The position numbers were made by a program, and so were the translations under genes. Shown here piece after piece: positions 1-36,357 of a stretch of 38,390 nucleotides of DNA (position 1 is the first letter of the stretch; each line of letters starts with the position of its first letter). The notes beneath the pieces were generated by a model, which did no database searches, was not told the origin of the DNA, and saw only the letters and a program-made list of their open reading frames with translations. Source of the DNA: Bacteroidia bacterium (GTDB taxonomy: Bacteria; Bacteroidota; Bacteroidia; Flavobacteriales; Flavobacteriaceae); NCBI GenBank assembly GCA_030425715.1, contig JAUIAA010000001.1, positions 1-38,390 on the forward strand, in the 5' to 3' direction.

Positions 1-2
1 GT

Positions 3-126
3 AACAATGCCTATAATTTATTGCGGCTTAAAGCTAAAACTGAAAGTAACTGAATATTAAAAAGTAAAAGCAGTTGGGGAAAAATAGAGCTTTTTTATCC
101 ACAACAAAATCATAGCCTAAAACGTT
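3..126 (+). repeat. attC-like intergenic repeat, subfamily A copy 1 (Flavo-1-like element)
   Basis: AAC at 3-5 to GTT at 124-126; imperfect inverted arms CTATAATTTATTGCGG / CCACAACAAAATCATAG; highly similar to 706-830. Confidence 0.85.
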
Positions 127-152
127 GTGTAACATTATTTGAAATTTGATAA

Positions 153-677
153 ATGAGAAACTTTATTGCATTTTTAATGTTTTTTTTTGTAATTATTAGT
201 TGCTCTTCGAGTAAACAAATACTAACAAATTCAGATAAAATTGAGAACAAGAAAATCATCTTTATTTTTGAAAGGAATAATGATTTTATTCCACTAGAAA
301 AAAAAGGAGACCATATTGGAAACTCAAAAACACCGACTAACAGTAGGGTATTTGAGAAAACAATTATAGATATTGCAAATGAAACAAATTTGGATTTAAT
401 TTATCAAGAACAATACGTATTTCCATCCGATTCTGTTATTCCAATAATAGTTTCAATTGATAAAATTGAATGGGAATGGAGCACCTTTTCGGCAGTTATG
501 AACACATCTTTAATATATAAATCACCCTTAGATACAATAAAAATAACTGGTTCAAACAGAAATTATTTGTTTGGAACTAAAAAAAGAAACCTATATCAAT
601 CTATGAAAAATGGAAACTACTTATTTTTAACTTTTATGCAAAATAAGCAATCTAATTATTCAATATCAGAAGAATGA
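153..677 (+). CDS. Hypothetical lipoprotein (cassette 1 cargo)
   Basis: 174 aa; hydrophobic N-terminus with lipobox-like IISC; bounded by repeats. Confidence 0.75.
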   Translation: MRNFIAFLMFFFVIISCSSSKQILTNSDKIENKKIIFIFERNNDFIPLEKKGDHIGNSKTPTNSRVFEKTIIDIANETNLDLIYQEQYVFPSDSVIPIIVSIDKIEWEWSTFSAVMNTSLIYKSPLDTIKITGSNRNYLFGTKKRNLYQSMKNGNYLFLTFMQNKQSNYSISEE

Positions 678-705
678 AAAAATCAAAAAATATATAACGT
701 TACAC

Positions 706-830
706 AACAATGCCTATAATTTATTGTGGTTTTTGTAATAAATTTGAAGTAACTGAATATTAAAAAATAAGAGCAGTTGGGGAAAAATAGAGCTTTTTTA
801 TCCACAACAAAATCATAGCCTAAAAACGTT
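706..830 (+). repeat. attC-like intergenic repeat, subfamily A copy 2
   Basis: AAC 706-708 to GTT 828-830; arms 714-729 and 802-818; shares AACAATGCCTATAATTTATTG and GCAGTTGGGGAAAAATAGAGC...CCACAACAAAATCATAGCCTAAAA with copy 1. Confidence 0.88.
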
Positions 831-855
831 GGCGGTAATTAAGCAAAATGAAACA

Positions 856-1917
856 ATGAAACAACTACACCTTGCATTAATCACAATATTGGCGTTATCA
901 TTAAGTTCTTGTGTTCAGCATCAAGAGAAGGAATTGAAAGATTCTAAAGAAACCTTTGGTCCCAGAATTATTGCAATTAATTATGATAGTTTATATCATT
1001 TGGAAGAACCGCCAGCTTACGAGCCTTTTCCAATGTATGGAGCTTTTTTATTTGGAGTAGCAACCCAAAACGTACCAATGGTATATGACACAAAACTCTC
1101 TCTTCCTGAAAACATCAAAAAATCAACAGATGTTATTTATAAAGAAACTGATGGATTATCACTCGGTTTGGATATATACTCAAATAAAACTGATAAATCA
1201 TCGAACCCACTAATACTAATAATTCATGGTGGTTATTGGAAAGCAGGTGATAAAGGAGAGTTCTATACGCAGCGTGCTATAGAATTTGTTGAAATGGGTT
1301 ACACCGTTGCATCAATAAATTATCGGTTATCAACAAATCACAAATTTCCAGCCAACATCGAAGACTTAAGAGATGGCATTTTATTCTTAGTCGAACATGC
1401 AGAGGAGTATAATATAGATGCTAGTCAAATTATGACTTATGGCATATCTGCTGGTGGTCATCTAGCGGCTTTTATAGCACTAGCTGCTAACTCTGATAGA
1501 GAATATGTAAAGGGTTTAAATCCATCTTCATTTAAAGGCGCAATTTCATTGTATGGAATACATGATATGAGTTTGACTATTCAAAGAGAGCATCCCTTTA
1601 CTGAATTATATATTGGAACATCTTATGATTTAGACACTACCAATTATATTGATGCTTCAACAACCCAACATGTAGACCAAAATGACCCACCGATTTTATT
1701 AATACATGGTTCGCTTGATGGTTCTGTATCTGTAAAAAATTCTGATAATTTAGCACAAGTACTAGAATCAAAAAAAGTCCCCTATGTCTATGACAGAATT
1801 GAAGGATGGCCTCATGTGATGGATTTTTTCTCGCCAATTGGAGAAAGAACACTCTGGCAAATGCATGATTTTCTTCAAGAATATATGCCTTCCGAAGAAT
1901 TAAAAAATAAAAAATGA
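856..1917 (+). CDS. Alpha/beta-hydrolase (esterase/lipase, HSL/BD-FAE-like) lipoprotein (cassette 2 cargo)
   Basis: HGGYW oxyanion motif, GISAGG nucleophile elbow, HGSLD and C-terminal His; lipobox LSSC. Start moved to ATG 856 because TTG 829 lies inside the repeat. Confidence 0.88.
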   Translation: MKQLHLALITILALSLSSCVQHQEKELKDSKETFGPRIIAINYDSLYHLEEPPAYEPFPMYGAFLFGVATQNVPMVYDTKLSLPENIKKSTDVIYKETDGLSLGLDIYSNKTDKSSNPLILIIHGGYWKAGDKGEFYTQRAIEFVEMGYTVASINYRLSTNHKFPANIEDLRDGILFLVEHAEEYNIDASQIMTYGISAGGHLAAFIALAANSDREYVKGLNPSSFKGAISLYGIHDMSLTIQREHPFTELYIGTSYDLDTTNYIDASTTQHVDQNDPPILLIHGSLDGSVSVKNSDNLAQVLESKKVPYVYDRIEGWPHVMDFFSPIGERTLWQMHDFLQEYMPSEELKNKK

Positions 1918-1929
1918 ATAACTACCGCC

Positions 1930-2054
1930 AACAACGTGTATAATTCATTGCTGTTTATAGCCTACTTACGAAAGTCCTCGCGGACTTTCTATCTGTGATT
2001 TATTTGCTAACTTTAGTGCTTAAACCACGTAACGAAATCATACACAAACACGTT
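1930..2054 (+). repeat. attC-like intergenic repeat, subfamily B copy 1
   Basis: AAC 1930-1932 to GTT 2052-2054; arms TGTATAATTCATTGC / GTAACGAAATCATACA; internal perfect hairpin GAAAGTCC-tcgc-GGACTTTC at 1970-1989. Confidence 0.85.
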
Positions 2055-2091
2055 CTATGACAAAACATTTTAAAGCTTCTACCTTAAACGA

Positions 2092-2667
2092 ATGAAAGAA
2101 CTATTAACCTACGTAAATCAAATTAGTCCTATTAAGGAAGTTACATTTAAGGAATTGAAAAAACGCTTTAAACCTTTACAACTTAATAAAAACGATTTTT
2201 TTGTCAGAGAAAGTGAATATGCACAACAAATAGGATTCTTAAAAAAAGGAATAATTAGAGCATTTTTTGTAAATCAAGAAGGAAAAGAATATACCAAACA
2301 ATTTTTTGTAGGTTCTTCCATAATTGGTGCTTACAATTCTTTACTAACAAAACAACCAAACAAGATAGCACAACAAGCCCTAACTGATTGTGAAATTCTT
2401 GTTGCCGATTATAGAGAAATGGAAAATCTCTATACTAAATTTCACGATTTAGAAAGATTGGGTAGAAAAATTGCCGAATTTTATTTTTTAGAAAAAGAAC
2501 AAAAAGAAATAGAAATGGCTCTATTAGATGCTGACAAAAGATACTTAATTATGCGACAAAGATTTCCATCAATTGAAACTATGATTCCACAATATTACAT
2601 TGCTTCATATTTAGGCGTATCACCAACTCAATTAAGTCGAATTCGAAAAAAGTTGAAAAATTCCTAA
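2092..2667 (+). CDS. Crp/Fnr family transcriptional regulator
   Basis: cNMP-binding-like N-terminal domain; C-terminal HTH IPQYYIASYLGVSPTQLSRIR. Confidence 0.92.
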   Translation: MKELLTYVNQISPIKEVTFKELKKRFKPLQLNKNDFFVRESEYAQQIGFLKKGIIRAFFVNQEGKEYTKQFFVGSSIIGAYNSLLTKQPNKIAQQALTDCEILVADYREMENLYTKFHDLERLGRKIAEFYFLEKEQKEIEMALLDADKRYLIMRQRFPSIETMIPQYYIASYLGVSPTQLSRIRKKLKNS

Positions 2668-2673
2668 TTTTAA

Positions 2674-2685
2674 TTACATATGTAA
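2674..2685. promoter_or_regulatory. Candidate operator for the adjacent Crp/Fnr regulator
   Basis: Perfect 12-bp palindrome TTACATATGTAA between the regulator and the downstream genes. Confidence 0.45.
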
Positions 2686-2781
2686 ATGTAACAAAACAGA
2701 AAAGCATTTTCCTTTGCATTGAATATTATTTTAAACATCGCCTTTTTTAGAGGCTTGTTTAAATTTTAAAATAGTCATTGT

Positions 2782-3261
2782 ATGAACCGGATTTTATTTT
2801 TTTTATCAATCATAATTTTTTCCATTTTTTTAGGAAGTCAAATTACAGAAGGACTTTTATTAGTTCCATATTGGAAATCGTTATCTAAAACAGAATTTTA
2901 TGAATATTATTCTAAATTTGGTCCACTAATAGGCAGGTTTTATACCATTCTAACTATTATCGCTACATTGATTCCAATAAGTATTAGCGTTTATTGTTTT
3001 TTCAACAAACTTCGTGCTTTAAAATATTCAGCTGTATCATCTTTTTTTGCTTTTCTAATCATTACAATTTTTTATATCTATTTTAAAGGTACGAATCAAC
3101 AATTCTATGGAGCTTCTTTTGATGTAAATCAATTAAAATCTGTATTGAAAGGATGGGAGTTTATGCATTGGTTAAGAGTCCTTTTTGAAATAATTTCTTT
3201 AGTTTTTCTAATCATAACCCTTAATATTCTTGATAAAAAAAAGGAAACAATAGATACTTAA
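2782..3261 (+). CDS. DUF1772/anthrone-oxygenase-like membrane protein
   Basis: 159 aa, four hydrophobic helices, W..MHWLR motif. Confidence 0.7.
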   Translation: MNRILFFLSIIIFSIFLGSQITEGLLLVPYWKSLSKTEFYEYYSKFGPLIGRFYTILTIIATLIPISISVYCFFNKLRALKYSAVSSFFAFLIITIFYIYFKGTNQQFYGASFDVNQLKSVLKGWEFMHWLRVLFEIISLVFLIITLNILDKKKETIDT

Positions 3262-3289
3262 TTTAATACTCAAAAAACATCCAACAACT

Positions 3290-3709
3290 ATGAAACATTT
3301 TTATATGTTATTTTTATTGATTTTAGGTTTTACTACTCATGGGCAATCAATTATAGGGCAATGGGAAACCTTTGATGATGAAACCAAAGAGAAAAAAGCA
3401 GTTATTGAAATTTATGAAAGTAATAACCTTTTTTTTGCGAAAATAGTTAAAAGCTATGTTAGCGAAAAAAATGCTGTTTGTGAAACTTGTAATGGTACTA
3501 GGAAAGGAAAACCAATAATTGGCTTAATCATTATTGAAAATCTAAAAAAAGATGGAGACGAATTTAATGACGGAAATATTATTGACCCAGAAAATGGAAA
3601 AACTTACAAGTGTTATTTAGAATTAATGGATCATAGTAAATTGAAAGTACGGGGTTATCTTGGGCTTTCTCTTTTCGGAAGAACTCAATATTGGCTTAGA
3701 AGGGAATAA
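3290..3709 (+). CDS. DUF2147 domain exported protein
   Basis: Signal peptide, IIGQWET, C..C, G.IIDPENGKTY, LKVRGYLGLSLFGRTQYW. Confidence 0.9.
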   Translation: MKHFYMLFLLILGFTTHGQSIIGQWETFDDETKEKKAVIEIYESNNLFFAKIVKSYVSEKNAVCETCNGTRKGKPIIGLIIIENLKKDGDEFNDGNIIDPENGKTYKCYLELMDHSKLKVRGYLGLSLFGRTQYWLRRE

Positions 3710-3713
3710 TAAC

Positions 3714-3830
3714 GGCATTGAGTATCCTTGTATAATTAATTACTAATACTCACCTACTTACTAAAGTTCGTGATTTATTTGCTAACTTTAGTACTTAAAC
3801 CACGCAACGAATACATAGCCAAGACCCTTG
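3714..3830 (+). repeat. Degenerate attC-like repeat, subfamily B copy 2
   Basis: Shares TGTATAATT, CCTACTTAC and GTGATTTATTTGCTAACTTTAGT.CTTAAACCACG.AACGAA with 1930-2054; central hairpin deleted; AAC and GTT ends mutated. Confidence 0.75.
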
Positions 3831-3850
3831 ACAACAAACTGAAACAGAAT

Positions 3851-3952
3851 ATGGAAACAAAAAGAATAGTACCAAGTATCAGTTCAATAAAATTTGATGT
3901 GCCACATGTGTTATATCCCTACTTCTTTCTTAAAGAGTCTACAAAATGTTAA
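3851..3952 (+). pseudogene. Possible truncated cassette gene remnant (N-terminus reminiscent of VOC/glyoxalase proteins)
   Basis: ATG about 20 bp after the last repeat; METKRIVPSISS followed by an early stop. Confidence 0.3.
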
Positions 3953-4084: not shown

Positions 4085-4543
4085 ATGGCAATATTCAATT
4101 TAAAAATTAATGGTAAAGAAAAACCAGTAGATGTCGATCCTGCTACTCCTATTCTTTGGGTATTGAGAGATCACCTCAAAATGGTAGGAACCAAATATGG
4201 CTGCGGTATTGCACAATGTGGTGCCTGTACCATTCACCTTGATGGAGTTGCAATACGTTCTTGCACCCTACCCATTCAGGCCGTTGGCAACAAATCTATT
4301 ACTACTATTGAAGGATTATCAGAAAAAGGTGATCACCCAGTTCAACAAGCTTGGTTAGAGCACGATGTACCACAATGTGGGTACTGTCAGGCAGGTCAAA
4401 TGATGAGCGCAGCTTCGTTGTTAAATGAAAATCCAAATCCAAATGATAAAGATATTGATGCCGCTATGCAAGGAAATATTTGCCGTTGTGGTACCTATAT
4501 TAGAATTAAATCTGCTATCAAAACAGCGTCTAAATTAAGCTAA
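4085..4543 (+). CDS. iorA: (2Fe-2S)-binding subunit, isoquinoline 1-oxidoreductase alpha / CoxS family
   Basis: [24 protein letters not shown] and CRCGTY motifs. Confidence 0.93.
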
Positions 4544-4593
4544 TAGTATATGCATCTTTAAGATTACTTTTTTCTTTTTAAAAATTAAATACC

Positions 4594-6861
4594 ATGACTT
4601 TAATAAAAACAACATATAATCGGCGATCATTTTTAAAATCTTCAGCTATTGCAGGTGGAGGCTTATTGATCGGTTTTAATTGGTTTGCTTCTTGTGAGCC
4701 CATTAAAAAGGAAGAAATTCTCAATTTACCTGAAGAGTGGTTTGATATCAATTCTTACCTAAAAATTGGCAATAACGGTGTGGTAACCATCTATTCGCCC
4801 AACCCTGAATTTGGGCAAAATGTAAAAACTTCCATGCCAATGATAGTTGCCGAAGAATTAGATATTGATTGGAAAAATGTTATTGTAGAACAAGCTGCTT
4901 ACAGCCCTGAGCAATTTCCTGGGGCACCATTTGGGCAATTTTCTGGCGGTAGTAGAGGTATTATGATGAAATGGAAACCATTACGTACTGCAGGAGCATC
5001 CGCCAAACATATGCTAAAAAAAGCTGCCGCTAAATCTTGGCAAGTTCCTGTGGAAGAAATAACTACTGCTAAAGGTGTTTTACATCATAAAGTGAGTGGT
5101 AAATCAGCAGGCTATGGCGAGATGGCATCTGCTGCCGCTAAGCTATCTATACCCGAAGAGGTGAAACTAAAAGCACCTAAGGATTATAAAGTCATCGGTC
5201 ATTCAAAAAAAAATGTTGATGGTTTAAAAATTGTTACCGGAAAACCAATGTTTGGTGTGGATTATCAAATGGAAGGCATGTTCATTGCTATGCCTATACA
5301 CCCTCCAGCGTTTGGGATGACTTTGGAGTCTATTGACAATTCCGCAGAAATTGAAAGCATGCCAGGTATTAAAGCTGTATTTGCAGTACAAACCTATGTA
5401 GACAGTTATAAAAAAGCCTATTTTGACACAAATGCATTTCCAGAAATAATTGCCGTGGTAGGCAATTCTACATGGGAGGTTATGCAGGCAAAAAAAGAAA
5501 TTAAAGCCAAATGGAAACCCATAAAAAGTAGTACCATTACAGTGAACCAATTTGGTCGAGATGTTAAGGTGCATACCCCTGCTGGATTAGAAAATACCTC
5601 AAATCACAATCAGCAAATGAATACCTTAATGTCTAATAAAATGAAAGTGGTTCGCAAGGATGGTAATCCTGAAAAAGCTTTCAAGGAGGCGTCTAAAATT
5701 ATTGAAAGAAACTACTCTGCTCCTTATCTGGCACATAACTGTATGGAGCCCATGAACTTTTTTGCTGATGTAAAAGAAAACCAAGCTCATGTAGCAGGAC
5801 CACTTCAAGGACCAGGACTTATTACGCCTACTTTAGCCGCATCTTTAGGAATTCCTGAAGAAAATATCCGTACAGAAATGACCAGAATGGGCGGTGGTTT
5901 TGGTCGTAGAGCATATTCACATTACGTAGTAGAGGCTGCACTAATTTCTCAAAAAGTTAAGGCTCCTATAAAATTGATGTATAGCCGTGAAGACGATATG
6001 ACCAATGGGATTTATCGCCCTACTTATCAAGCAACATATCGAGCTGCTATAGATGAAAACAACAACTTAACAGCCATACATATAAAAGCTGGAGGTATAC
6101 CCGAAAGTCCTTTATTTGCAAATCGTTTTCCAGCAGGTTCTGTGGACCATTATTTGGCAGAAGAATTTGCCATAGATTCAAATATTACAACAGGCGCATT
6201 TCGTGCACCACGCTCTAATTTTATGGCTGGAGCAGAGCAATCTTTTTTAGATGAAATTGCTGAAACTTTAGGTAAAGACCCTATTAATTTTAGGTTAGAT
6301 TTATTAAAACGAGCAAAAGAAAACCCAGTTGGAGAAACCAATGAATATGATGCTGAACGCTATGCAGGTGTATTGAAATTAGTTAAAGAAAAATCTAGTT
6401 GGGGTAATAACGATGCCAACCTCCATAGAGGAGTCTCTGCATATTTTTGTCATAACTCTTATGCCGCACATGTTTTGGATTTGACTATAGTAGATGGTAA
6501 ACCTATTGTTCAAAAAGTTACCTGTGCTATTGACTGCGGTATAGTAATTAACCCAGATGCAGCAACCAATATGGCAGAAGGTGGAATAACCGACGGTATA
6601 GGTAATGCATTGTATGGTGAAATGACTTTTAAAGATGGTATACCTCAAAAAAACAACTTTCACCAATATAAAATGATTCGTATGGGTGACGCCCCAAAAG
6701 AAATTGAAGTACATTTTGTGCAAAATGAAATTGACCCAACCGGATTAGGTGAACCTCCTTTTCCTCCTATTTTTGGAGCTGTTGCCAATGCCATGTATAA
6801 AGCTACTGGCAAAAGAAAATACCATCAACCATTTTTAAAAAGTAATGATATACTTGGATAA
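4594..6861 (+). CDS. iorB: Molybdopterin-binding subunit, isoquinoline 1-oxidoreductase beta / xanthine dehydrogenase family
   Basis: Tat-like RRSFLK signal; AHNCMEP, MGGGFGRR, GAFRAP and GLGEPP motifs; directly follows iorA. Confidence 0.92.
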   Translation: MTLIKTTYNRRSFLKSSAIAGGGLLIGFNWFASCEPIKKEEILNLPEEWFDINSYLKIGNNGVVTIYSPNPEFGQNVKTSMPMIVAEELDIDWKNVIVEQAAYSPEQFPGAPFGQFSGGSRGIMMKWKPLRTAGASAKHMLKKAAAKSWQVPVEEITTAKGVLHHKVSGKSAGYGEMASAAAKLSIPEEVKLKAPKDYKVIGHSKKNVDGLKIVTGKPMFGVDYQMEGMFIAMPIHPPAFGMTLESIDNSAEIESMPGIKAVFAVQTYVDSYKKAYFDTNAFPEIIAVVGNSTWEVMQAKKEIKAKWKPIKSSTITVNQFGRDVKVHTPAGLENTSNHNQQMNTLMSNKMKVVRKDGNPEKAFKEASKIIERNYSAPYLAHNCMEPMNFFADVKENQAHVAGPLQGPGLITPTLAASLGIPEENIRTEMTRMGGGFGRRAYSHYVVEAALISQKVKAPIKLMYSREDDMTNGIYRPTYQATYRAAIDENNNLTAIHIKAGGIPESPLFANRFPAGSVDHYLAEEFAIDSNITTGAFRAPRSNFMAGAEQSFLDEIAETLGKDPINFRLDLLKRAKENPVGETNEYDAERYAGVLKLVKEKSSWGNNDANLHRGVSAYFCHNSYAAHVLDLTIVDGKPIVQKVTCAIDCGIVINPDAATNMAEGGITDGIGNALYGEMTFKDGIPQKNNFHQYKMIRMGDAPKEIEVHFVQNEIDPTGLGEPPFPPIFGAVANAMYKATGKRKYHQPFLKSNDILG

Positions 6862-6971
6862 AATAATTGATTGGTGTGTAATTCACTAAAATAAAATATA
6901 AAAATTCACTTGGAGTAAGTTTGTAGAAAAGAAGGGCTGTAAGTTATTGTAGTATATTAAATATTCGGTAA

Positions 6972-7463
6972 ATGAATAATACATTTTTAAAACAATTCAG
7001 CTATTTATTTTTAATAGGGTGCAGTTTTATACAGGTAGGAGCAAGTTTATTTGCAATAAGTGTAAATGTGTCAACATTGGTAAAAGCACCACCTGCATCA
7101 CTTGCCATGGTTCAAGGATCTTACGTATTCGATCCTAGTGTTTTTTGGGATAATTTTCCAAATTTCATGTTAGTAGTGGTCATCCTTACTCTTATTCTAA
7201 ATTGGAAAACACCACTTCGAAAATGGATAATTTGGGGAAGTGTAGTTTATCTTATTTCTGGCATAATCGCTGTATTTATTCTAGAACCTGTACAAACAGA
7301 ATTTTTATCTTCGGAATATGCGAATATTATAGATCCTGTATTAAAAGAACAAGGTATACTATGGCGTAATGTTAGTTTATGCTTTTTAGGAGTATCCATA
7401 CTTAGTGGACTTGTGTTTATACTTGGATATATAAAGGTTCAATTGATGAAAACCTCAAATTAA
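6972..7463 (+). CDS. Membrane protein, DUF1772-like
   Basis: Four hydrophobic segments; APPASL...FW pattern. Confidence 0.6.
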   Translation: MNNTFLKQFSYLFLIGCSFIQVGASLFAISVNVSTLVKAPPASLAMVQGSYVFDPSVFWDNFPNFMLVVVILTLILNWKTPLRKWIIWGSVVYLISGIIAVFILEPVQTEFLSSEYANIIDPVLKEQGILWRNVSLCFLGVSILSGLVFILGYIKVQLMKTSN

Positions 7464-7487
7464 TACACATGCCAATCTCGATAAGCG

Positions 7488-8417
7488 ATGAAAATTAAGA
7501 TTGATATCACTCAAAATATTATTCAACAGTTTCAAAAGCAAATGAGCTTTGAGGGTCAAGAAGTCAATCCCAAATATGGGGGTGGCCAAATGAAAATGGT
7601 AACATTTCCAGATGGTTTGGAGTTTTATTATTATACAACCCCTGGCTATACGGTTCCTATAGAAATGATTTCCAAAAACCCTCCTGATAGTGAATGGTAT
7701 CTCATCCATATAAATTTAGGGGGCGACCAACAAAACAAAAAAATTAAATCGGAGTCGATTACTTTTCACAACCATTCACCTGCGGGAGCTTTGACCTATT
7801 GCCCGGGTCTATCTATAACTACTCATTTTCCTGTTGGTCATAAAGGAGAGTTGGCGTCACTGCGGTTTCCAAAAGCACTATTGCTATCTTACTTTGAAAA
7901 AAATATATTAGATCAAGGTAAATCTATCATTTTTGAACATTTGGATTTTCAAACGGAGCAACAACTTAGAAAAGCTATCAACCATCAAGATAATAAACTA
8001 AAATGCCACGGTCTTGCATTGGAAGTACTAAGTACATTATTGCAAAAAATGGCACTTCATAATCCTATTTCTAAAAAGGTTTACTTACACGGTAATGATA
8101 CTAATATGCTTTTTAAAGCGGCTTCGGCGCTAAGAAATCCTTTGACCGAAAAACTTCCATCAGTAAATGAATTGGCCGAAATGGCGCATATGAGCCCTAC
8201 TAAATTTAAAACATCCTTTAGGTTATTATTTGGTAGTGCTCCAAAGCAGTATCACCACAAAATAAAAATGGAATATGCCCGAGATGCCTTATTAAATGGC
8301 GCAAAAACACCTACCGATCTGAGTTACGACTTAGGTTATTCACATCCATCTAATTTTACATCTGCCTATAAAACTTTTTTTAATCGACTCCCTTCTGAAG
8401 AGTTGGCAATAGCTTAA
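7488..8417 (+). CDS. AraC family transcriptional regulator
   Basis: C-terminal double HTH: ELAEMAHMSPTKFK...LGYSHPSNFTSAYK. Confidence 0.92.
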   Translation: MKIKIDITQNIIQQFQKQMSFEGQEVNPKYGGGQMKMVTFPDGLEFYYYTTPGYTVPIEMISKNPPDSEWYLIHINLGGDQQNKKIKSESITFHNHSPAGALTYCPGLSITTHFPVGHKGELASLRFPKALLLSYFEKNILDQGKSIIFEHLDFQTEQQLRKAINHQDNKLKCHGLALEVLSTLLQKMALHNPISKKVYLHGNDTNMLFKAASALRNPLTEKLPSVNELAEMAHMSPTKFKTSFRLLFGSAPKQYHHKIKMEYARDALLNGAKTPTDLSYDLGYSHPSNFTSAYKTFFNRLPSEELAIA

Positions 8418-14627: not shown

Positions 14628-17600
14628 TTATTCTTTGATTATATTAAAAACTTTTGTCTCATTTTCAGTGGTAATTCTAACAAAATACATTCCTTCAGGA
14701 AAATTCTGCATATTTATCTCCTGGGTTTGCAATACACTATTATTGAATATTAGATTCGCATAAGTTATTCCGTACAAATTAAATATTTCTACCTCTGCGC
14801 TTTTTAATATGTTTTGTTCCATATACAGTGTGTTTTGTACTGGATTAGGATAAACAGTAAATACATTATCCAATTCACTATCGCACATACGTGATTTTAT
14901 AGATGCTTCAGCTGTTAAAGTATATTTATGTGTAATATTAAAGGTGCTCAATTTCCAAATTAATTTAGTTCCATCAAAGCGAACCTGAAAAACACCTTCA
15001 CCAGGTAAAAACGCTGTTGGCACATTACCACTATAACTTCCACTGCTTGATAAGTTATTATCTATGCCTTCTAAAACATATATAGTGTATGGGTTTTGAT
15101 TTTTATACCTAAAATTTGCTGTATAATTTAAACCATCAGCTGCATTAGCATCATAATTAACGCAATCTAAATATACACGAACTTTTCTAATGCTTGCATC
15201 ACAAGGGTTTACAAATAATTTACCCATATCATCATAAACTATATGATAATTTTTTGGCGCTCTAATCTTAATGTCAAATACACCAATATCTCCATTTTTA
15301 TATTCCTCTCCTTCTGCGTTTTCAAAATAATAATCCACCCCATCTGGAAACACCAAAGCACTATTGTCTGTGTATTTAAATCCTGTAAAAGTACACGACA
15401 TAGAGGTTATGTCTATTGCTTCCCCTTGATTAATGACCAAATCATTAGTTTTGGTATGGAGATTTGCTTTTGAAATTTGTAATTTTCCTGAAACATATGT
15501 CGTATTGAAATTTTCAAAAATTGGTGCTAATGCCCCTCCTGGAAAAATATGATGCTGCTCCTCTAAAGTAGAAGTTGCGTCTATACCAGTTATTAAGTTT
15601 AGTGCATAAAGTTTGTCAATCGTTCTTTCTTCTGTGTCTGTTGAAACATCTTCAGCATCAACAATGGCAAATACTTTAGAATAATCTTTTTGGTCATCTT
15701 CATCTCCTAAACCGCTAGTGTTCACTACTGCCTTAAATTTATTTTCTAGAGATAGTTCTACATTATTACTAAATAAATCCGCACTATTTACAACTGCTCT
15801 AAATTTATTTACAACTGCTCTAAATTTGTTGGTAGTAACATCTTGACTAGCATCTATATAATCTGTAAAATGTTCTTCATCTAAATCTATCAATTGCATA
15901 CCATTAACTACTGCCCTAAATTTATTTTGTATGGTTCTTTCACTGGCTATCCAACTACCATTATTTAATAGTTCTAAAATATTGTACTCATTAACAACCG
16001 CTTTGAATTTATTGGCAAATACCAAGGTATTTTCAGGGTAATAATCTGATTGATGCGCGCTCATAATTGCACTTAAAAATGCTTCATTATTAGATATATT
16101 TGTCTGGTCATAGTTATAGTCCAATTCTATTTCTATAGGCTCTCCATATTCATAGGTAGTATTCTTTGGTTGAATTTCTAAATCTTTTTGACTAACCGTT
16201 AAAATGCCGTTTTTAAAATTGATTTGATATAGAGCTAACTGTTCTTCTGTCAATTCTTCATCAAAATAAGGGGTGATGTTATAATTATTCACATCTGGAA
16301 AAGGTAAAAAGGCTGGGCTGGTAAACTTTACCTCTGGCAAGCCTAGTGATGCCAAAGTTTCTCCCTCTGGCAAACCCTCTACGGTAGCCTCATATTGAAT
16401 ATCTTGACCAAATTCAATAGATAAATCATTGGCTTTGATATTAAAGGCAATCTTACCATCTTCTAATATTTTTACTGGATCTCCTTTTCCATCTAAACCT
16501 GATTCTGATTTTGGTAATGCGTTTACTTCTAAATCTGGATTACCTGTAAATGTTTCAATCTTTGCTACTATTTCCGTGTCTGTACGCGAAATAATCTCCA
16601 CTTCCTCACCATCAAATAATACAACAGATTCTTCCGTAAAATGTTCTCCAACTATGGTTAAATTGAAAGGCTCTGCACTGGGTGTTTTTCCATCTTCAAT
16701 TATCAATGTTATAATTTTTGGAGACTGGGCTGCTATACTTTTAAAGGCATTCTCTGTATCTATAAATCCTGCTCCTGCAGTTGCAGCATTCCCAAAGGGT
16801 ACAGCAGTTTGCTTAAAAATTTGCAAAACCTTATCTGCTTGTAGATTCGTCTTATTCGGAACTTCATTAGGTAAACCACTAGGATACCAGTTTGGCAATG
16901 CCGACATCAACAATACTACAGCTCCAGCGGCATGCGGTGCTGCGGCAGAGGTACCGTAAAAATTAGTAAAATTATCTTCATCTGCGGGGCTATCAGCTCC
17001 AAAAGAAGGCATATTGATATTTCCTCCATCGGGTGCAGTAAAATCTATTTCTAATTCCGTTTGATTTGTTAGAATTCCTCCGTACGAGGAAAATGATTCG
17101 ATTTCCGGATTGTTAGCATTTCTATAATCTACCGCACCAATTATATTTGCTGCAGGTGTCATGGCATGTCCACTTATGGTAGGAGCACCTTGGTTATATT
17201 CTACCAATTCTAACCCATTTGATTGATAAACTATATACCTAAAGGAAAGACCAGTTGGTGGAGTACTCCCAACACTATTGATAAAAATATTGGTATCTCC
17301 TTCTCCCTTTGCTTCAAAAACAATAACTTCTGTAGGGTCTCCAGCTTCGTTAAACCGATTATTACCAACTACCAAATTACCAGCATCATCTACTAGGTAA
17401 ATATCCAAATCGGTTGTTGCACCACTGCTGTTTTCCTGAGAAGCACTACCTTCATCCCATTGCATAACAATCATATAGGTGCCTTCAAGCAGGTGGATTT
17501 TTTGCAATTGGTCTTCTGATCCATCTGGGTTAGTTCCAAATACATGTGGAGTTTGTACTATAGAAGGGTCTAAAAAGTTTGCAGCCAAATCATCTGATCC

Positions 17601-19073
17601 TGGCTGAAATTGAGATTGATAACCGTGATTAGAAAAATTTCCAGCAGAGCTAAAATAAATATTCCCTGGCTTACTCGTAAATTCATTAATCGCCTTTGAA
17701 ATTCTTCCTTCACCATAAAATGGTTCGGTAATAAAAGTTAAATCATCTACTATAATTTTGCAACCCGCTTGTTCAAGGGCTTGCAAACCAAGTTCAAAAA
17801 CTCTTGGAGATTGTGAACCTGTATGAAAGGCTAATTCAGCACCTGGTGCTACATCATGAACTATTTGTAGCATAGCTCTACCTTCATCTGAAGCTGTGGC
17901 TGGGTAATCTTGTAATACTTGTACAGGTACTTCAAAACCATTAGGGTTACCTATACCTGGTAAATCTCCATTTTGCACATCAACGGTTGCTTTAGAAATT
18001 CCTGTAAATGGCTCGGTATCATAGCTGTCAGAAATTACACCTAATTTAACACCTGTACCATCAACTGGTACCAACTTTCCATCTTTAACCATTTTAAATG
18101 ATTCTCTAATTTTATCTGACTTTTGTGCTGCATCACCTTGAGAAGTTACAATTCCAATGTTTCTACGTGTTGGATGAAGTGTTCTTGCAAAATTAACAAT
18201 TGAAACATCTTCATTTAGTTCCATTAATTGATCGATAGGGAAATAGATATCTACTGTGGTTAAATTTTGAGAAATTATGGTAGATGGATTTACCAAAAAA
18301 TCACTTAATAAAGGATTGTTGTTAAAATGCAAATCGTATTTAGTGGTCAACAAATTGATTAGCGCTTGCATATTTCCCTCAGTAGGTACAATTTCTATTA
18401 GAACTTTTTGTGCTTCATTAATTTGGTAGATTAAATTGGATGGCTCATCTCCAGCGTTATCCTCTTCTAATGCTTTTAAATCTAAACCAATTTTACTATC
18501 TATATTCTCTTTACCCGTTTCTTGTCCGTGTACCGGAAAAATAAAACCTTCTTCTTCATCCGTACAATGAGATGAATTTGCACTTGCAATTATTACATGT
18601 ATTTTTCCATTAGGATGTATAACGGTCCATTCCACTACTTCTTTTGCTTTAAAAACTATAGAAAAAGCATTTTTCATGTTACCTGGCTTAAATTTACGTA
18701 AGCCTTTTAATTTCTTGGAAGCATTAGAATGGTTCTTTTTATTAGGTCTATTATTTTGACCTTTATATTTATTGTTATCTGCCTTTTTAATTTTAACATA
18801 GCTATCTCCTTCTTTACAGACCACAGCTTTATTAGTTGGGTTGTCATATTCAAAGTTGGCTTTATACAATCCATTACCAATGTATTGTGTACATACACGT
18901 ATCACTATATCCTTTTTGTCTTTTTTATGATTTTTATTTCCTTTTTTTTGTGCATAACTTATGGATGTTAAAAAAAATAAAAGGAAAAGAAAGATAAAAT
19001 GTTTGATCTGGAATTGGGGTTTGGTTGAAGAATCAACAAACGTTGATTTTGATTGAGTACAGTTTCTTTTCAT
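14628..19073 (-). CDS. Large T9SS-secreted subtilase-like (S8/S53-like) peptidase with IPT/TIG-like and MBG-like domains
   Basis: GVISDS, DEGRAM..IVHDVAPGA, SSAGN and FYGTSAAAPH; C-terminal VYPNP...GMYFVRI...FNIIKE T9SS type A sorting domain. Confidence 0.88.
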   Translation of the reverse strand: MKRNCTQSKSTFVDSSTKPQFQIKHFIFLFLLFFLTSISYAQKKGNKNHKKDKKDIVIRVCTQYIGNGLYKANFEYDNPTNKAVVCKEGDSYVKIKKADNNKYKGQNNRPNKKNHSNASKKLKGLRKFKPGNMKNAFSIVFKAKEVVEWTVIHPNGKIHVIIASANSSHCTDEEEGFIFPVHGQETGKENIDSKIGLDLKALEEDNAGDEPSNLIYQINEAQKVLIEIVPTEGNMQALINLLTTKYDLHFNNNPLLSDFLVNPSTIISQNLTTVDIYFPIDQLMELNEDVSIVNFARTLHPTRRNIGIVTSQGDAAQKSDKIRESFKMVKDGKLVPVDGTGVKLGVISDSYDTEPFTGISKATVDVQNGDLPGIGNPNGFEVPVQVLQDYPATASDEGRAMLQIVHDVAPGAELAFHTGSQSPRVFELGLQALEQAGCKIIVDDLTFITEPFYGEGRISKAINEFTSKPGNIYFSSAGNFSNHGYQSQFQPGSDDLAANFLDPSIVQTPHVFGTNPDGSEDQLQKIHLLEGTYMIVMQWDEGSASQENSSGATTDLDIYLVDDAGNLVVGNNRFNEAGDPTEVIVFEAKGEGDTNIFINSVGSTPPTGLSFRYIVYQSNGLELVEYNQGAPTISGHAMTPAANIIGAVDYRNANNPEIESFSSYGGILTNQTELEIDFTAPDGGNINMPSFGADSPADEDNFTNFYGTSAAAPHAAGAVVLLMSALPNWYPSGLPNEVPNKTNLQADKVLQIFKQTAVPFGNAATAGAGFIDTENAFKSIAAQSPKIITLIIEDGKTPSAEPFNLTIVGEHFTEESVVLFDGEEVEIISRTDTEIVAKIETFTGNPDLEVNALPKSESGLDGKGDPVKILEDGKIAFNIKANDLSIEFGQDIQYEATVEGLPEGETLASLGLPEVKFTSPAFLPFPDVNNYNITPYFDEELTEEQLALYQINFKNGILTVSQKDLEIQPKNTTYEYGEPIEIELDYNYDQTNISNNEAFLSAIMSAHQSDYYPENTLVFANKFKAVVNEYNILELLNNGSWIASERTIQNKFRAVVNGMQLIDLDEEHFTDYIDASQDVTTNKFRAVVNKFRAVVNSADLFSNNVELSLENKFKAVVNTSGLGDEDDQKDYSKVFAIVDAEDVSTDTEERTIDKLYALNLITGIDATSTLEEQHHIFPGGALAPIFENFNTTYVSGKLQISKANLHTKTNDLVINQGEAIDITSMSCTFTGFKYTDNSALVFPDGVDYYFENAEGEEYKNGDIGVFDIKIRAPKNYHIVYDDMGKLFVNPCDASIRKVRVYLDCVNYDANAADGLNYTANFRYKNQNPYTIYVLEGIDNNLSSSGSYSGNVPTAFLPGEGVFQVRFDGTKLIWKLSTFNITHKYTLTAEASIKSRMCDSELDNVFTVYPNPVQNTLYMEQNILKSAEVEIFNLYGITYANLIFNNSVLQTQEINMQNFPEGMYFVRITTENETKVFNIIKE
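15720..16013 (-). repeat. Five copies of coding motif NKF(K/R)AVVN, including a perfect 21-bp tandem duplication
   Basis: Copies at 15720-15743, 15786-15830 (two; ATTTACAACTGCTCTAAATTT x2), 15903-15926 and 15990-16013. Confidence 0.92.
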
Positions 19074-32256: not shown

Positions 32257-33738
32257 GTGAAAAAATATATTCTTGCCATAGACCAAGGAACCACTAGTTC
32301 TCGAACGGTCTTATTTAATGATAAAGGAGTTAATTGTGCCGTATCGCAAAGAGAAACTAAACAAATTTATCCCAAACATGGATGGGTAGAACAAGATGCT
32401 GAAAACATATACAAAACCCAACTAAAAACTTTAAGAGAAGTAGTTAAAACTGCCAATCTTAACCCAGTACAGATTGGGGCAATTGGCATTACCAATCAAA
32501 GAGAAACAACCGTAGTTTGGCATAAAAAAACCGGAAAACCCATTTACAACGCCATTGTTTGGCAAGATGTTCGAACTTCAAAATGGTGCCAAAAACTACA
32601 AAAGGCAGGCAAAGAAAAAATCATTAAAGAAAAAACGGGCTTGGTTTTAGATTCTTATTTTTCTGCAACCAAAATAAAATGGATTTTAGATACCATACCA
32701 AATGCTAGAACCCAAGCCAAAAATAATGAATTACTATTCGGTACTATTGATACATGGCTGCTTTGGAAAATGACCAAAGGAAAAATTCATGCTACAGATT
32801 ATTCCAATGCTTCCAGAACTTTACTATTTAATATTCATACTTTAAATTGGGATGAAGAATTATTAGATTTATTTGACATACCCAAATCTCTGCTCCCGCA
32901 AGTCAAACCTTCGAGTTATCATTTTGGGGATTTTAAGTTTGAAAAAATAAATATTCCAATTACAGGAATCGCTGGCGACCAACAAGCTGCACTTTTTGGT
33001 CAAGCTTGCTTTAAAAAAGGGGATACCAAAAATACCTATGGCACAGGCTGTTTTTTATTGATGAATACAGGCGAGAAAGCAAAACCATCTAAAAATGGCT
33101 TGCTCACTACCATTGCATGGGGTCTCAACCATAAAGTGTACTATGCCTTAGAAGGAAGTGTATTTATTGGAGGTGCAGCTATCAAATGGCTTAGAGATGG
33201 GTTGCAATTGATTAAAAATGCTGCGGAAAGTGAATTGTTCGCTTCAAAAGTGAAAGAAGAGAGTTCGGTTTATGTCGTTCCTGCATTTGCAGGTTTAGGT
33301 GCTCCTTTTTGGGATATGGATGCCCGGGGAGCTATTTTTGGATTGACGCAAGATACCAATAAAAACCACTTGATTAAAGCCACCTTAGAGTCTATTGCAT
33401 ATCGCAGTAAAGATTTAATTTTAGCAATGGAATCCGATTCAAATATTAAATTAGCCAATTTAAATGTAGATGGTGGTGCATCGGCAAACGGTTTTTTAAT
33501 GCAGTTTCAAGCAGATATTTTAAATACTATTGTGAAAAGGGCAAAAGTTATTGAATCTACCGCTTTGGGTGCAGCCTATTTAGCTGGGATAGAAATTGGC
33601 TTATGGACACAAGAGGAAATTATTAGCATGCAAGAAGACGAAGTTTCATTTTACCCTAAAATGAGTAAATCCAAACGCGAGCAATTGTATAAAAATTGGC
33701 TTAAAGCAGTAAAAAGATCTATGCATTGGGAAGACTAA
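32257..33738 (+). CDS. glpK: Glycerol kinase
   Basis: [28 protein letters not shown] and KNTYGTGCF. Confidence 0.97.
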
Positions 33739-33748
33739 ATAAAAAATA

Positions 33749-34144
33749 ATGAAAAAAGATATCACCATAGAAAAAGTAGAAAACCTAGAATTGGCAGTTG
33801 TGCAAGAATACAATCCAACCTTTAAAAGCAACGATTGGTATGCCTATTTAATCAATAAAAAAAATGTTGATTTAGAAGTGGTTTTGATTGTGTCAGATGG
33901 TAAAGATGGAAAAAAAACAACATCTACCATGCGGCATAAAATTGAAAAGATGCCTGCAAATACCATTGCAAAAGTAGAATTGATACAAGAAGAAATTCTA
34001 AAATTAGACAACCAATTCAAGGTTACCTTTTTTGAAGGGAATAAAATGCAAGAAAAAACCTTTATAATTCCTAAAAACTCCGTCAAAGAAGGCACATTAA
34101 GGCATATTAAAATATTGGACAAAAAAGGTGTAATTTTTAAATAA
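33749..34144 (+). CDS. Hypothetical protein
   Basis: 131 aa, tight operon spacing with both neighbours. Confidence 0.7.
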   Translation: MKKDITIEKVENLELAVVQEYNPTFKSNDWYAYLINKKNVDLEVVLIVSDGKDGKKTTSTMRHKIEKMPANTIAKVELIQEEILKLDNQFKVTFFEGNKMQEKTFIIPKNSVKEGTLRHIKILDKKGVIFK

Positions 34145-34147
34145 TGT

Positions 34148-34693
34148 ATGATGGGTAAGCAATTTAATCATATCAATAGCAGACTAAAATCTTTTATAGC
34201 AAAACAAAAAATATTCTTTGTAGCTACTGCCACAGCAGACAGTCGCGTAAATTTATCTCCCAAAGGAATGGATACTTTTAAGGTATTAAATAATAATAAA
34301 GTGCTTTGGTTAAATCTTACAGGTAGCGGTAACGAAACAGCGGCACATATACAAAAAGATGGTAGAATAACTATAATGTTTTGTGCTTTTGAAGGTGCTC
34401 CAATGATTTTAAGGCTGTATGGTACTGCAAAAGTAATCCACCCAAAAGATGAGGAATGGAAAGAAAACTATGCCAATTTTAAAGATTTAGCGGGTGCTCG
34501 CCAAATATTTGATGTGACCGTAGATTTAGTGCAAACCTCTTGTGGGATGTCTATCCCATATTTTGATTTTAAAGAAGAACGTTTGCAGCTCGATCAATGG
34601 GCTAATGAAAAAGGGGAAGAAGGAATTAAAAATTATTGGAAAGAAAAAAATGAAGAAAGTATAGATGGAATTCCTACATATATAAACGATTAA
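34148..34693 (+). CDS. Pyridoxamine 5'-phosphate oxidase family protein
   Basis: FFVATA, VNLSPKG, GSGNETAAH, MFCAFEG and VQTSCG. Confidence 0.9.
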   Translation: MMGKQFNHINSRLKSFIAKQKIFFVATATADSRVNLSPKGMDTFKVLNNNKVLWLNLTGSGNETAAHIQKDGRITIMFCAFEGAPMILRLYGTAKVIHPKDEEWKENYANFKDLAGARQIFDVTVDLVQTSCGMSIPYFDFKEERLQLDQWANEKGEEGIKNYWKEKNEESIDGIPTYIND

Positions 34694-36357
34694 TGACTGT
34701 TTTTTCAAACCTATACAGAGCAGAGATTATCGATAAATTAAAGTCGAATACCTTTGATATGTTGGTAATTGGTGGCGGAATTACAGGTGCTGGAATTGCA
34801 TTAGATGCTGCCTCACGCGGATTGAAAGTTGCTTTGGTAGAAAAAAACGATTTTGCTTCTGGTACTAGTTCCAAATCTACAAAATTGATACATGGTGGAT
34901 TGCGGTATTTAAAGCAGTTTGATTTTTGGTTGGTAAAAGAAGTTGGTACCGAACGTGCTATAGTACATCAACTTGCTCCTCACTTGGTTGTTCCTGAAAA
35001 AATGCTTTTACCAATTATTAAAAATGGAACTTATGGCTCTTGGTTAACTTCATTTGGATTAAAAATTTATGATGTTTTGGCAAGTGTAGAGGGAGAGGAT
35101 AAAAGAAGAATGCTACATAAAAGAGAAGCATTAGAATTAGAACCCTTACTGCCGCAAGATATTTTAGAAGGTGCTGGTTATTATGCTGAATATAGAACCG
35201 ATGATGCAAGATTGACTATAGAAGTATTAAAAACCGCAGCACAACATTCCGCGAAAGCGATAAACTACACAGCAGTCGAGCATTTTATTTATCAAGATGA
35301 GAGAATTACTGGTGCATCGGTTATAGATGAAATATCTAAAGAAAAATTTGAAATTCATGCAAAATGTATTGTAAATGCCACTGGCCCATGGGTAGATAAG
35401 ATTAGAGCTATAGACACTATACAACAAGTACAATCAAAAAAAAGATTACATCTAACCAAAGGTATACACCTTGTTTTTCCTTTTGAAAAGTTACCAGTGA
35501 AACAATCGGTATATTTTGATGTTCCTGATGGACGTATGATTTTCGCCATTCCTAGAGGGAAAATTACTTATGTGGGAACCACAGATACAAATTATTTGAG
35601 TGATATTAACAAGGTTACAGTAAATCAGGTTGATGCGCTATATATTATTAGTGCCATCAATCATATGTTTACTTCTATTGAGGTAAAAATGGAAGATATT
35701 CTTTCTAGCTGGGCTGGATTGCGGCCCTTGATACATGAAAAAAGGAAATCGCCAAGTGAATTGTCAAGAAAAGATGAAATTTTTGAGTCAGATTCGGGCT
35801 TGCTATCTATTGCTGGAGGGAAACTTACAGGTTATAGAAAAATGTCTGAACGAATTACCGATTTAGTTTGCAAGCGTTTAAAAAGAGATTTTGATGTTAA
35901 ATCAAAACCTATACAAACCGAACATTTACAACTGGTTGGAGGAGATTTTAAAAACTATAGCGAGGTAAAGGTTTTTACCAACAAAATTTACAACCAATTA
36001 AAACAGGATGGTTTTCAAAAAAAAGATGCCCAAATATTAGTCCACAAATATGGCACACAGTGTAACCTTATCCTACAAAAATATTTTTCTTTAAATAATA
36101 ATAATGATTGCGATATAAAACTAGCAAAGGCCGAATTGTGGTTTTGTTTACATTATGAAATGGTACAAAGACCATTAGATTTTTTTACCAGGCGAACGGG
36201 TAAATTATTTTTTGAAATAGAAACGATAGAAAAATTGAAAATTCCTATTTTAAAAGAATTCCAAAACCATTTTGAATGGAGTGATCAAACTTTTGCATTA
36301 GAAATGGAATTGCTTCACCAAGAGGTTAAAAAATGTACCGAATTTGAAACAAATTAA
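34693..36357 (+). CDS. glpD: FAD-dependent glycerol-3-phosphate dehydrogenase/oxidase
   Basis: IGGGITGAG, GTSSKSTKLIHGGLRYL, DDARL, WAGLRPL and GGKLT. Confidence 0.94.
   Translation: MTVFSNLYRAEIIDKLKSNTFDMLVIGGGITGAGIALDAASRGLKVALVEKNDFASGTSSKSTKLIHGGLRYLKQFDFWLVKEVGTERAIVHQLAPHLVVPEKMLLPIIKNGTYGSWLTSFGLKIYDVLASVEGEDKRRMLHKREALELEPLLPQDILEGAGYYAEYRTDDARLTIEVLKTAAQHSAKAINYTAVEHFIYQDERITGASVIDEISKEKFEIHAKCIVNATGPWVDKIRAIDTIQQVQSKKRLHLTKGIHLVFPFEKLPVKQSVYFDVPDGRMIFAIPRGKITYVGTTDTNYLSDINKVTVNQVDALYIISAINHMFTSIEVKMEDILSSWAGLRPLIHEKRKSPSELSRKDEIFESDSGLLSIAGGKLTGYRKMSERITDLVCKRLKRDFDVKSKPIQTEHLQLVGGDFKNYSEVKVFTNKIYNQLKQDGFQKKDAQILVHKYGTQCNLILQKYFSLNNNNDCDIKLAKAELWFCLHYEMVQRPLDFFTRRTGKLFFEIETIEKLKIPILKEFQNHFEWSDQTFALEMELLHQEVKKCTEFETN

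Follow-up and report, generated by a model that had tools for sequence, protein, structure and literature searches.

An array of integron-like gene cassettes in a Flavobacteriaceae genome and a non-IntI tyrosine recombinase that probably serves it

How do genes come to stand one behind the other on a single strand, separated by repeats of about 125 bp, and can they move as units? This question is raised by positions 1-3952 of a 38,390-nucleotide stretch of Flavobacteriaceae DNA (assembly GCA_030425715.1; the window, hereafter, is this whole stretch), which forms the start of contig C3 (JAUIAA010000001.1) in an assembly of 2.18 Mb that is 71% complete. The array DNA contains three intact sites and one eroded site between co-oriented cassettes. 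We propose, with a probability of roughly 75%, that it forms the distal end of a mobile-cassette array, whose units would be cut out and re-inserted, in the manner of an integron, by a tyrosine recombinase that is not an IntI and has its gene elsewhere in the genome. This proposal is built on sequence comparison, and we weigh it here against three other explanations.

Cassette boundaries and cassette mobility

The original prediction, made from the letters of the window, described an integron-like cassette array in which three intact elements of 124-125 bp run from AAC to GTT, each starting shortly after a stop codon and all genes facing the same way. These features were borne out (Table 1): stop codons at 677, 1917 and 3709 shortly precede sites 2, 3 and 4, and all five open reading frames (ORFs) of at least 90 amino acids (aa) within positions 1-3952 lie on the plus strand. 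Sites 1 and 2 are 89% alike, sites 1 and 3 61%, and the site model gave 0 matches in 1.2 Mb of shuffled array DNA. The fourth element is eroded, as predicted, but its proposed span of 3714-3830 had to be revised; most likely it covers 3721-3829, with AGT in place of AAC and CTT in place of GTT, the AAC at 3711-3713 being the outer triplet of the end of cassette 3.

The cassettes are delimited by seven variable nucleotides (N7) that recur as their reverse complement (N7') on the far side of the gene. Intact cassettes open with GTT-N7-ATT and close with AAC-N7'-AAC; a full cassette thus consists of GTT-N7-ATT, the gene or genes, AAC-N7'-AAC and a site of ~120 bp ending in the next GTT. We adopted this model-free signature because the site matrix, once refined, favoured a single subfamily and no longer detected site 3. 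Across both strands of the assembly (4.36 Mb), the exact signature occurs twice, both times in the window. In the arrays of relatives, the two N7 copies flanking a gene pair at a mean of 5.26 of 7 positions in 47 distinct neighbouring pairs (30 of them at 6 or 7), a figure lowered by sites missed between pairs, compared with 2.84 of 7 within sites and 2.81 of 7 in shuffles (maximum 3.55 in 10,000). For the inner stem, by contrast, identity reaches 14.0 within a single site but drops to 9.8 when the preceding site is used and to 8.9 after shuffling. Since N7 pairs with the cassette's other end and the inner stem pairs within one site, the exchange point should lie between the two, at GTT. The base preceding GTT is C in cassette sites and often A in the attI-like sites described below, which narrows the exchange to GTT or its 5' edge. 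The three-gene block at 2052-3723 is likely an older cassette with worn ends: these match at 5 of 7 N7 positions, and 1 of 68 natural starts matches equally well. By eye, the whole block also follows a worn right arm in both family genomes that hold it.

Mobility is best documented for cassette 2. None of 38 further genomes of the genus was found to have its hydrolase gene, yet at another locus (L095) an unrelated gene is followed by a copy with 93% identity across 1,102 columns; this identity begins at GTT, and only 32 of 68 upstream columns are alike. Copies that are ~99% identical, from sequencing runs of four studies (X8-X11), extend from position 827 (836 in X9) to 1952, and none of the four covers 780-820; overall, identity to copies elsewhere starts at 826-828. 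Another run (X7) contains cassette 2 without cassettes 1 and 3. Within the arrays of two relatives (G010 and G021), the same small cassettes repeat after different predecessors. The original prediction had named a fixed cargo order as the observation that would speak against it, and we found the cargo to be variable, with the hydrolase missing from those 38 genomes and near-identical copies in other contexts. Site 1 has a summed contig depth ~70x (run X1) and ~30x (run X4) that of unique genes, and several contigs continue with other sequence past position 126; this depth, which adds up all organisms, fits the presence of many more such sites than were assembled. Joints linking positions 125-710, 127-1929 and 842-1916 were considered as excisions and rejected: they have short sides with unknown letters between them, and we take them to be different cassettes lying between similar sites.

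Some further cassettes and sites were noted along the way. At L095:3930-7950, the hydrolase cassette accompanies a solo attI-like site, and an opposite-strand gene of 357 aa, transposase-like by eye, interrupts the next site. The small cassettes of G010 and G021 (L014:6803-10186 and L022) have cores of 130-174 bp and occur four to five times in one array; they are possibly promoter-bearing or non-coding. Site 3 matches plasmids H26 and H27 of the fish pathogen Tenacibaculum finnmarkense at 78-79%; these sites therefore occur on plasmids too.

A candidate recombinase on another contig

The original prediction placed the recombinase upstream of the window or in trans, and a candidate was indeed found elsewhere in the genome. 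The assembly holds two PF00589 genes, one XerD-like and one encoding a 408-aa protein on contig C329, and a scan of genome contigs with the latter returned a single locus. The C329 protein has the catalytic residues of a tyrosine recombinase (R242, K267, H-L-R-H at 333-336, H358 and Y367). It lacks ~40 residues of the IntI insertion (I2 region), with residues 291-313 facing 184-248 of VchIntIA; the distance from the catalytic R to HxLRH is 90 residues here and 89-94 across the family, versus 130-132 in IntI, and against the integron-integrase model TIGR02249 the protein scores 175 bits, below the cut-off of 265.

Two observations connect this enzyme to arrays. Twenty-five bp behind its stop codon lies GTT-GCCAACA-ATT, with 116 bases of contig left beyond the stop, and its orthologues head arrays. 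The relatives of the recombinase are named Lutimonas, Lutibacter, Namhaeicola and Urechidicola, which, together with a type IX secretion domain encoded in the window, points to Bacteroidota and likely to Flavobacteriaceae; the host would be a marine-type relative of Flavobacterium. Orthologues with 53-55% identity in four genomes (G010, G007, G021 and G019) head same-strand arrays of at least 30, 25, 13 and 11 sites, respectively, in the stretches fetched; the G007 array is split over two contigs and the G019 orthologue contains stops. A conserved motif ending in GTT-N7 follows the stop codon at L002, L014, L022, L023, L028, L038 and further loci, and in three relatives the N7 behind this attI-like motif closes at the first site. 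By analogy with these relatives, the C329 recombinase likely serves the window array.

The predicted structure of the C329 protein (mean predicted local distance difference test score, pLDDT, of 86) includes a separate N-terminal domain, residues 5-79. Over 57-62 residues this domain aligns to the damage-recognition domain (DRD) of XPB and the N-terminal domain of UvsW, with Z scores of 6.4-7.1 and a root-mean-square deviation of 1.6-2.1. XPB-DRD- and HARP-like folds bind forked or distorted DNA. Among 61 family members, weak domain matches were obtained to DUF5710 (13 members) and HARP (3 members). Folded alone, the domain reached a pLDDT of 48; Foldseek listed no match for it, and the Atlas gave only Bacteroidota clusters, under 0.9.

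A family profile built from these 61 homologues and searched in 301 genomes of the phylum detected the family in 112. Of these 301 genomes, 90 have a true IntI above its cut-off, with only one row from the same class, whereas the present family occurs in 50 of ~80 rows from the same family or class; the two enzymes have a near-complementary spread. A class search with a single protein at E 1e-45 was too strict and recovered 8 of 251. In a quick tree of 64 rows (midpoint root; support from the Shimodaira-Hasegawa-like approximate likelihood ratio test only; two IntI rows only 32% filled; family rows below 250 aa, except L052, and L060 left out), the family (support 90) is sister to IntI (99) against XerC/D (99). 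We chose 40 loci from the profile matches for long contigs and spread, and the exact N7 signature is present in 18 of them, 43 times on the strand of the recombinase and 0 times on the opposite strand.

Several members stand apart. Homologues of ~280 aa at L068-L072, L084, L087 and L088 have neither the N-terminal domain nor cassettes and belong to a family rich in true IntI. On Acinetobacter and soil plasmids (L052:4028-6200 and L053), the resistance gene tet(X3) follows a truncated family member with 41% identity that is nested in the family tree; GTT-N7-ATT precedes the gene and AAC-N7-AAC plus a left-arm-like stretch follows it, with an N7 match of only 4 of 7 and the site cut short. Three genomes (L059:1701-2468, L065:12390-13157 and L089:12654-13433) have a gene for a LinB/aadK-like nucleotidyltransferase as the cassette that comes first at their attI-like site; its DNA is 99% identical between two of them and 76% identical to the third, which belongs to another class.

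Site folding, mechanism and alternatives

We compared the folding of the two strands in 34 distinct sites whose cassette ends were joined in silico. For 32 of the 34, the bottom strand is the more stable (mean -24.9 versus -21.8 kcal/mol for the top), where only the top/bottom difference is informative, the sites having been picked for perfect N7 pairing; in array form the bottom strand folds better in 27 of 34. A/G pairs, which become G:T on the bottom strand, occupy stem positions 4, 13 and 18 from the start of AAC in 33, 15 and 26 of the 34 sites. Such G:T pairs mostly account for the non-Watson-Crick positions, as well as for the base after N7, and the adjoining stem positions use all four Watson-Crick pair types. 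Pairing is ungapped through stem positions 7-24. The original prediction had the arms one base longer on the right and invoked canonical attC geometry with extrahelical bases. The former is too simple, as the right spacer is 2-4 nucleotides (nt) longer in 32 of 34 sites, and the latter found no support, since no extrahelical base is conserved among the 34; the window sites have one or two unpaired T on the arm other than L''. The folding of these sites is a tendency and no proof.

The mechanism that we propose would run as follows. Excision would join both cassette ends into one complete site, whose bottom strand would fold into a 13-bp outer box, an asymmetric bubble and an inner stem that contains G:T pairs. 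Cleavage by the recombinase would fall within the bottom-strand AAC, and the circle would be inserted at a double-stranded attI-like site, ATATAAC-NN-GTT, located behind the recombinase's own co-oriented gene or present as solo copies. Orientation would be set by the G:T pairs and the bubble instead of extrahelical bases. In the least certain step, the HARP/XPB-DRD-like N-terminal domain might sense the structure in place of the missing IntI insertion.

Apart from the selection of the folded sites, several observations weigh against this proposal. In array form, the window sites fold no better than shuffles (bottom-strand z of -0.1 to -1.3). As many as 22 of the 40 loci are without the exact signature (4 of these have less than 1.4 kb downstream, and 8 are the short homologues of one family). 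A search of 8 contig sets, a data type from which rare variants are lost, revealed no circle junctions. The Z scores of the N-terminal domain stay below 8, and this domain is absent from some cassette-bearing members (L067, 289 aa), so that it is nonessential to the family. The site body of cassette 2 differs among the window, L095 and L096 (35 of 63 and 86 of 129 columns alike), and three site bodies on one hydrolase cassette are not predicted by a strict integron model; they could reflect homogenisation among site copies that are frequent, or an additional exchange located at the left AAC. Finally, the window array does not share a contig with the recombinase, and the molybdoenzyme genes that flank it have no sites beside them in any of 7 stretches taken from five relatives.

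The last two points bear on where the array belongs. Since contig C86 and L095 show arrays at solo attI-like sites, the window array may either be where the main array tails off or belong to a solo array on which the enzyme acts in trans. On C86, a second array starts at a solo attI-like site after holB. The contig ends contain no half-sites of this family, so that joining the window to C329 failed, and Logan contigs break at repeats. The C86 array carries a Fic-like gene (by eye) as cassette after holB, followed by several worn sites (G000:C86:1000-2377 and 4943-8300), and shortened or worn solo sites occur at C135:2482-2570 on the minus strand, on C143 and on C314.

Among the alternatives, double-stranded chemistry by the same enzyme on the same cassettes fares best, although we consider it unlikely. 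The sites would be classical core sites with a 7-bp overlap, or an exchange at the left AAC would move gene and site body separately. Two conserved triplets around a 7-bp variable spacer are indeed how a simple tyrosine-recombinase site is built, the insertion tied to single-strand recombination is missing from the enzyme, and one cassette is joined to three different site bodies. However, inverted sites with matched spacers should invert cassettes, and all 43 are co-oriented; the compensated inner stem and the G:T bias of the bottom strand likewise speak against it. Moreover, duplicated cassettes mostly retain the site body: it is 0.86-1.0 alike in the majority of pairs, and a comparison between two genomes gives 0.73.

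A further alternative is an ordinary attC cluster that has no integron-integrase (CALIN), that is, canonical attC cassettes without IntI, or with IntI missing from the 71% complete assembly. The AAC/GTT core, the co-orientation and the bottom-strand bias match integrons as described in available text (PMC5027507), and draft genomes are reported to inflate CALIN counts (PMC9024848). Yet TIGR02249 is exceeded in none of five genomes, namely this one and the four array-bearing relatives, which are 93-100% complete, and the arrays lie directly behind a non-IntI recombinase with an attI-like joint. The sites show neither a conserved extrahelical base nor an RRRY/RYYY consensus, and true IntI was found in a single same-class genome of the phylum sample. 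We therefore regard an ordinary CALIN as quite improbable. Least tenable are elements resembling miniature inverted-repeat transposable elements or repetitive extragenic palindromes, or a small RNA (Flavo-1), inserted between the genes of a genomic islet: ~125-bp intergenic repeats with imperfect inverted arms and a few copies on other contigs might suggest as much, but the original prediction's second contrary pattern, random orientation with target-site duplications, did not appear (duplications of 0 and 1 nt; one strand per locus), the gene flanks are mutually complementary, which insertion cannot create, the sites give no Flavo-1 match, and strand uniformity together with the complementarity of N7 within its own cassette refutes this reading.

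PADLOC matched 0 of 5 cargo proteins, site 3 gave no match to phages, and the protein of cassette 1 has a single weak relative (27%) among 250 family genomes. The array stops ahead of molybdoenzyme genes at 4085, a 2Fe-2S and molybdopterin oxidoreductase pair at 4085-6861. Further along, the window encodes a 1481-aa protein secreted by the type IX secretion system (14628-19073) as well as glycerol kinase and glycerol-3-phosphate dehydrogenase (32257-36357).

Table 1. Sites, cassette ends and genes of the array, in window positions.
Feature	Positions	Strand	Remarks
Site 1, attC-like, AAC...GTT	3..126	+	124 bp; own cassette beyond contig start; 95% alike to a site on contig C86
Cassette 1 start: GTT, N7 (127-133), ATT	124..136	+	GTT-GTGTAAC-ATT
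Cassette 1 gene: 174-aa protein, lipoprotein-like N-terminus (by eye)	153..677	+	without family match
Cassette 1 end: AAC, N7 reverse complement (699-705, 7/7), AAC	696..708	+	AAC-GTTACAC-AAC
Site 2, attC-like, belongs to cassette 1	706..830	+	125 bp
Cassette 2 start: GTT, N7 (831-837), ATT	828..840	+	GTT-GGCGGTA-ATT
Cassette 2 gene: alpha/beta hydrolase, BD-FAE family PF20434	856..1917	+	E 2.3e-49
Cassette 2 end: AAC, N7 reverse complement (1923-1929, 7/7), AAC	1920..1932	+	AAC-TACCGCC-AAC
Site 3, attC-like, subfamily other than that of sites 1 and 2	1930..2054	+	125 bp
Cassette 3 gene 1: Crp/Fnr-type regulator, cyclic nucleotide-binding (cNMP-binding) domain	2092..2667	+	family match
Cassette 3 gene 2: 159-aa hydrophobic protein	2782..3261	+	without family match
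Cassette 3 gene 3: DUF2147 protein	3290..3709	+	E 6.6e-31
Cassette 3 eroded end: AAC, N7' (3714-3720), AGT	3711..3723	+	5/7 complementary to 2055-2061
Site 4, eroded	3721..3829	+	shares 48 bp with the right half of site 3 at 92%
33-codon ORF, possible stub of a fourth cassette	3851..3952	+	no family, no clear relative

Comparison with integrons, rAID-1 and Flavo-1

Bacteroidetes have contributed almost nothing to integron surveys, with In0 only in earlier work and now one complete integron in Salinibacter, according to the survey text available (PMC9024848). At about even odds, we suggest that a second kind of integron exists across the phylum and is missed by IntI and attC models. Here, an IntI-sister enzyme without the insertion would recombine single-stranded hairpins via G:T pairs and the bubble, helped by the HARP-like domain; it would largely replace IntI in Bacteroidia, include the gut rAID arrays and be the source of cassettes, tet(X3) among them, that subsequently arrived in pathogens. 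If the mechanism holds, cassettes can be captured without an insertion thought to be essential for single-strand recombination, the origin of integrons from Xer-like enzymes gains a testable model, rAID arrays are explained, and a pool of mobile genes, resistance-like cargo included, is going unmonitored. The window adds a clean natural test of the mobility of one cassette, the genome-wide specificity of N7 and the near-complementary spread of the family and IntI.

Flavo-1 (RF01705), to which the original prediction had likened the sites, is also a repeated, structured intergenic element of Bacteroidetes; in its published description, however, it spans 76 positions and differs in sequence from the window sites (PMC2864571). 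The likeness did not hold up in an Rfam scan either: the window gave no match at gathering score and seven chance-level matches at E up to 10, none of them Flavo-1, and the genome's only Flavo-1 match is on another contig, under the cut-off.

The nearest published system, compared by description only, is rAID-1 of gut Bacteroidales, in which a XerD-like recombinase accompanies co-oriented low-GC genes and integron-like repeats, as far as the preprint texts describe it (bioRxiv 10.1101/471110, 10.1101/2025.05.03.651265). It is defined there by a 5' recombinase more than 44% identical to BF9343_RS08045 and at least two co-oriented downstream genes of no more than 41% GC, and its cargo consists of orphan interbacterial immunity genes; the main texts give no cassette boundaries, hairpin or mechanism ('attC' occurs 0 times in the first, and 'cassette', 'hairpin' and 'integron' 0 times in the second). 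The cargo of the window has 25-34% GC and downstream genes in 12 loci have 30-41%, which is weak evidence in a host of 33% GC. Compared with the immunity genes described for rAID-1, cargo here appears metabolic, regulatory, defence- or resistance-like; no immunity-named Pfam family was found at E 1e-5 in 94 ORFs of 12 loci or in the 5 window ORFs, about half of which are without any family, and no named Bacteroides protein was among the best 120 matches listed in the homologue searches. Nothing in the literature searched describes the present site anatomy; that literature takes in few subscription papers and, for the rAID preprints, running text without the supplementary material and figures (motif logos, tables S6-S7).

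With integrons and CALINs, as far as the available descriptions go, the system shares co-oriented cassettes, an AAC/GTT exchange point and cassettes whose two ends make up one whole once circular (PMC5027507, PMC2095811, PMC9024848). A hairpin favoured by the bottom strand with an unpaired central spacer (here computed only) and an insertion site by the recombinase gene are common to both, and with IntI the enzyme shares the PF13495 N-terminal core domain and the grouping against XerC/D in the quick tree. Unlike IntI, the C329 enzyme is without the insertion and has an extra N-terminal domain of ~80 aa. The outer box is GTT-N7-ATT, 13 bp of free sequence, rather than GTTRRRY; the first base after GTT is a purine in 47 of 47 cases and positions 2-4 are free. 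Canonical attC sites are described as having RYYYAAC/GTTRRRY and two or three extrahelical bases, and their spacer measures 5-6 nt (PMC5027507). Different from integrons, too, the recombinase gene is co-oriented with its array, and the attI-like site lies directly behind its stop codon. Cassette starts complementary to their own ends around AAC/GTT, an attI-like site by the recombinase and mobility at the core are thus found here, while the IntI insertion, the RYYYAAC/GTTRRRY consensus and the two or three extrahelical bases of the L'' arm are not. Judged by its sequences, the system appears to work like an integron, yet it falls outside what the IntI and attC tests recognise and is hence not filed as one.

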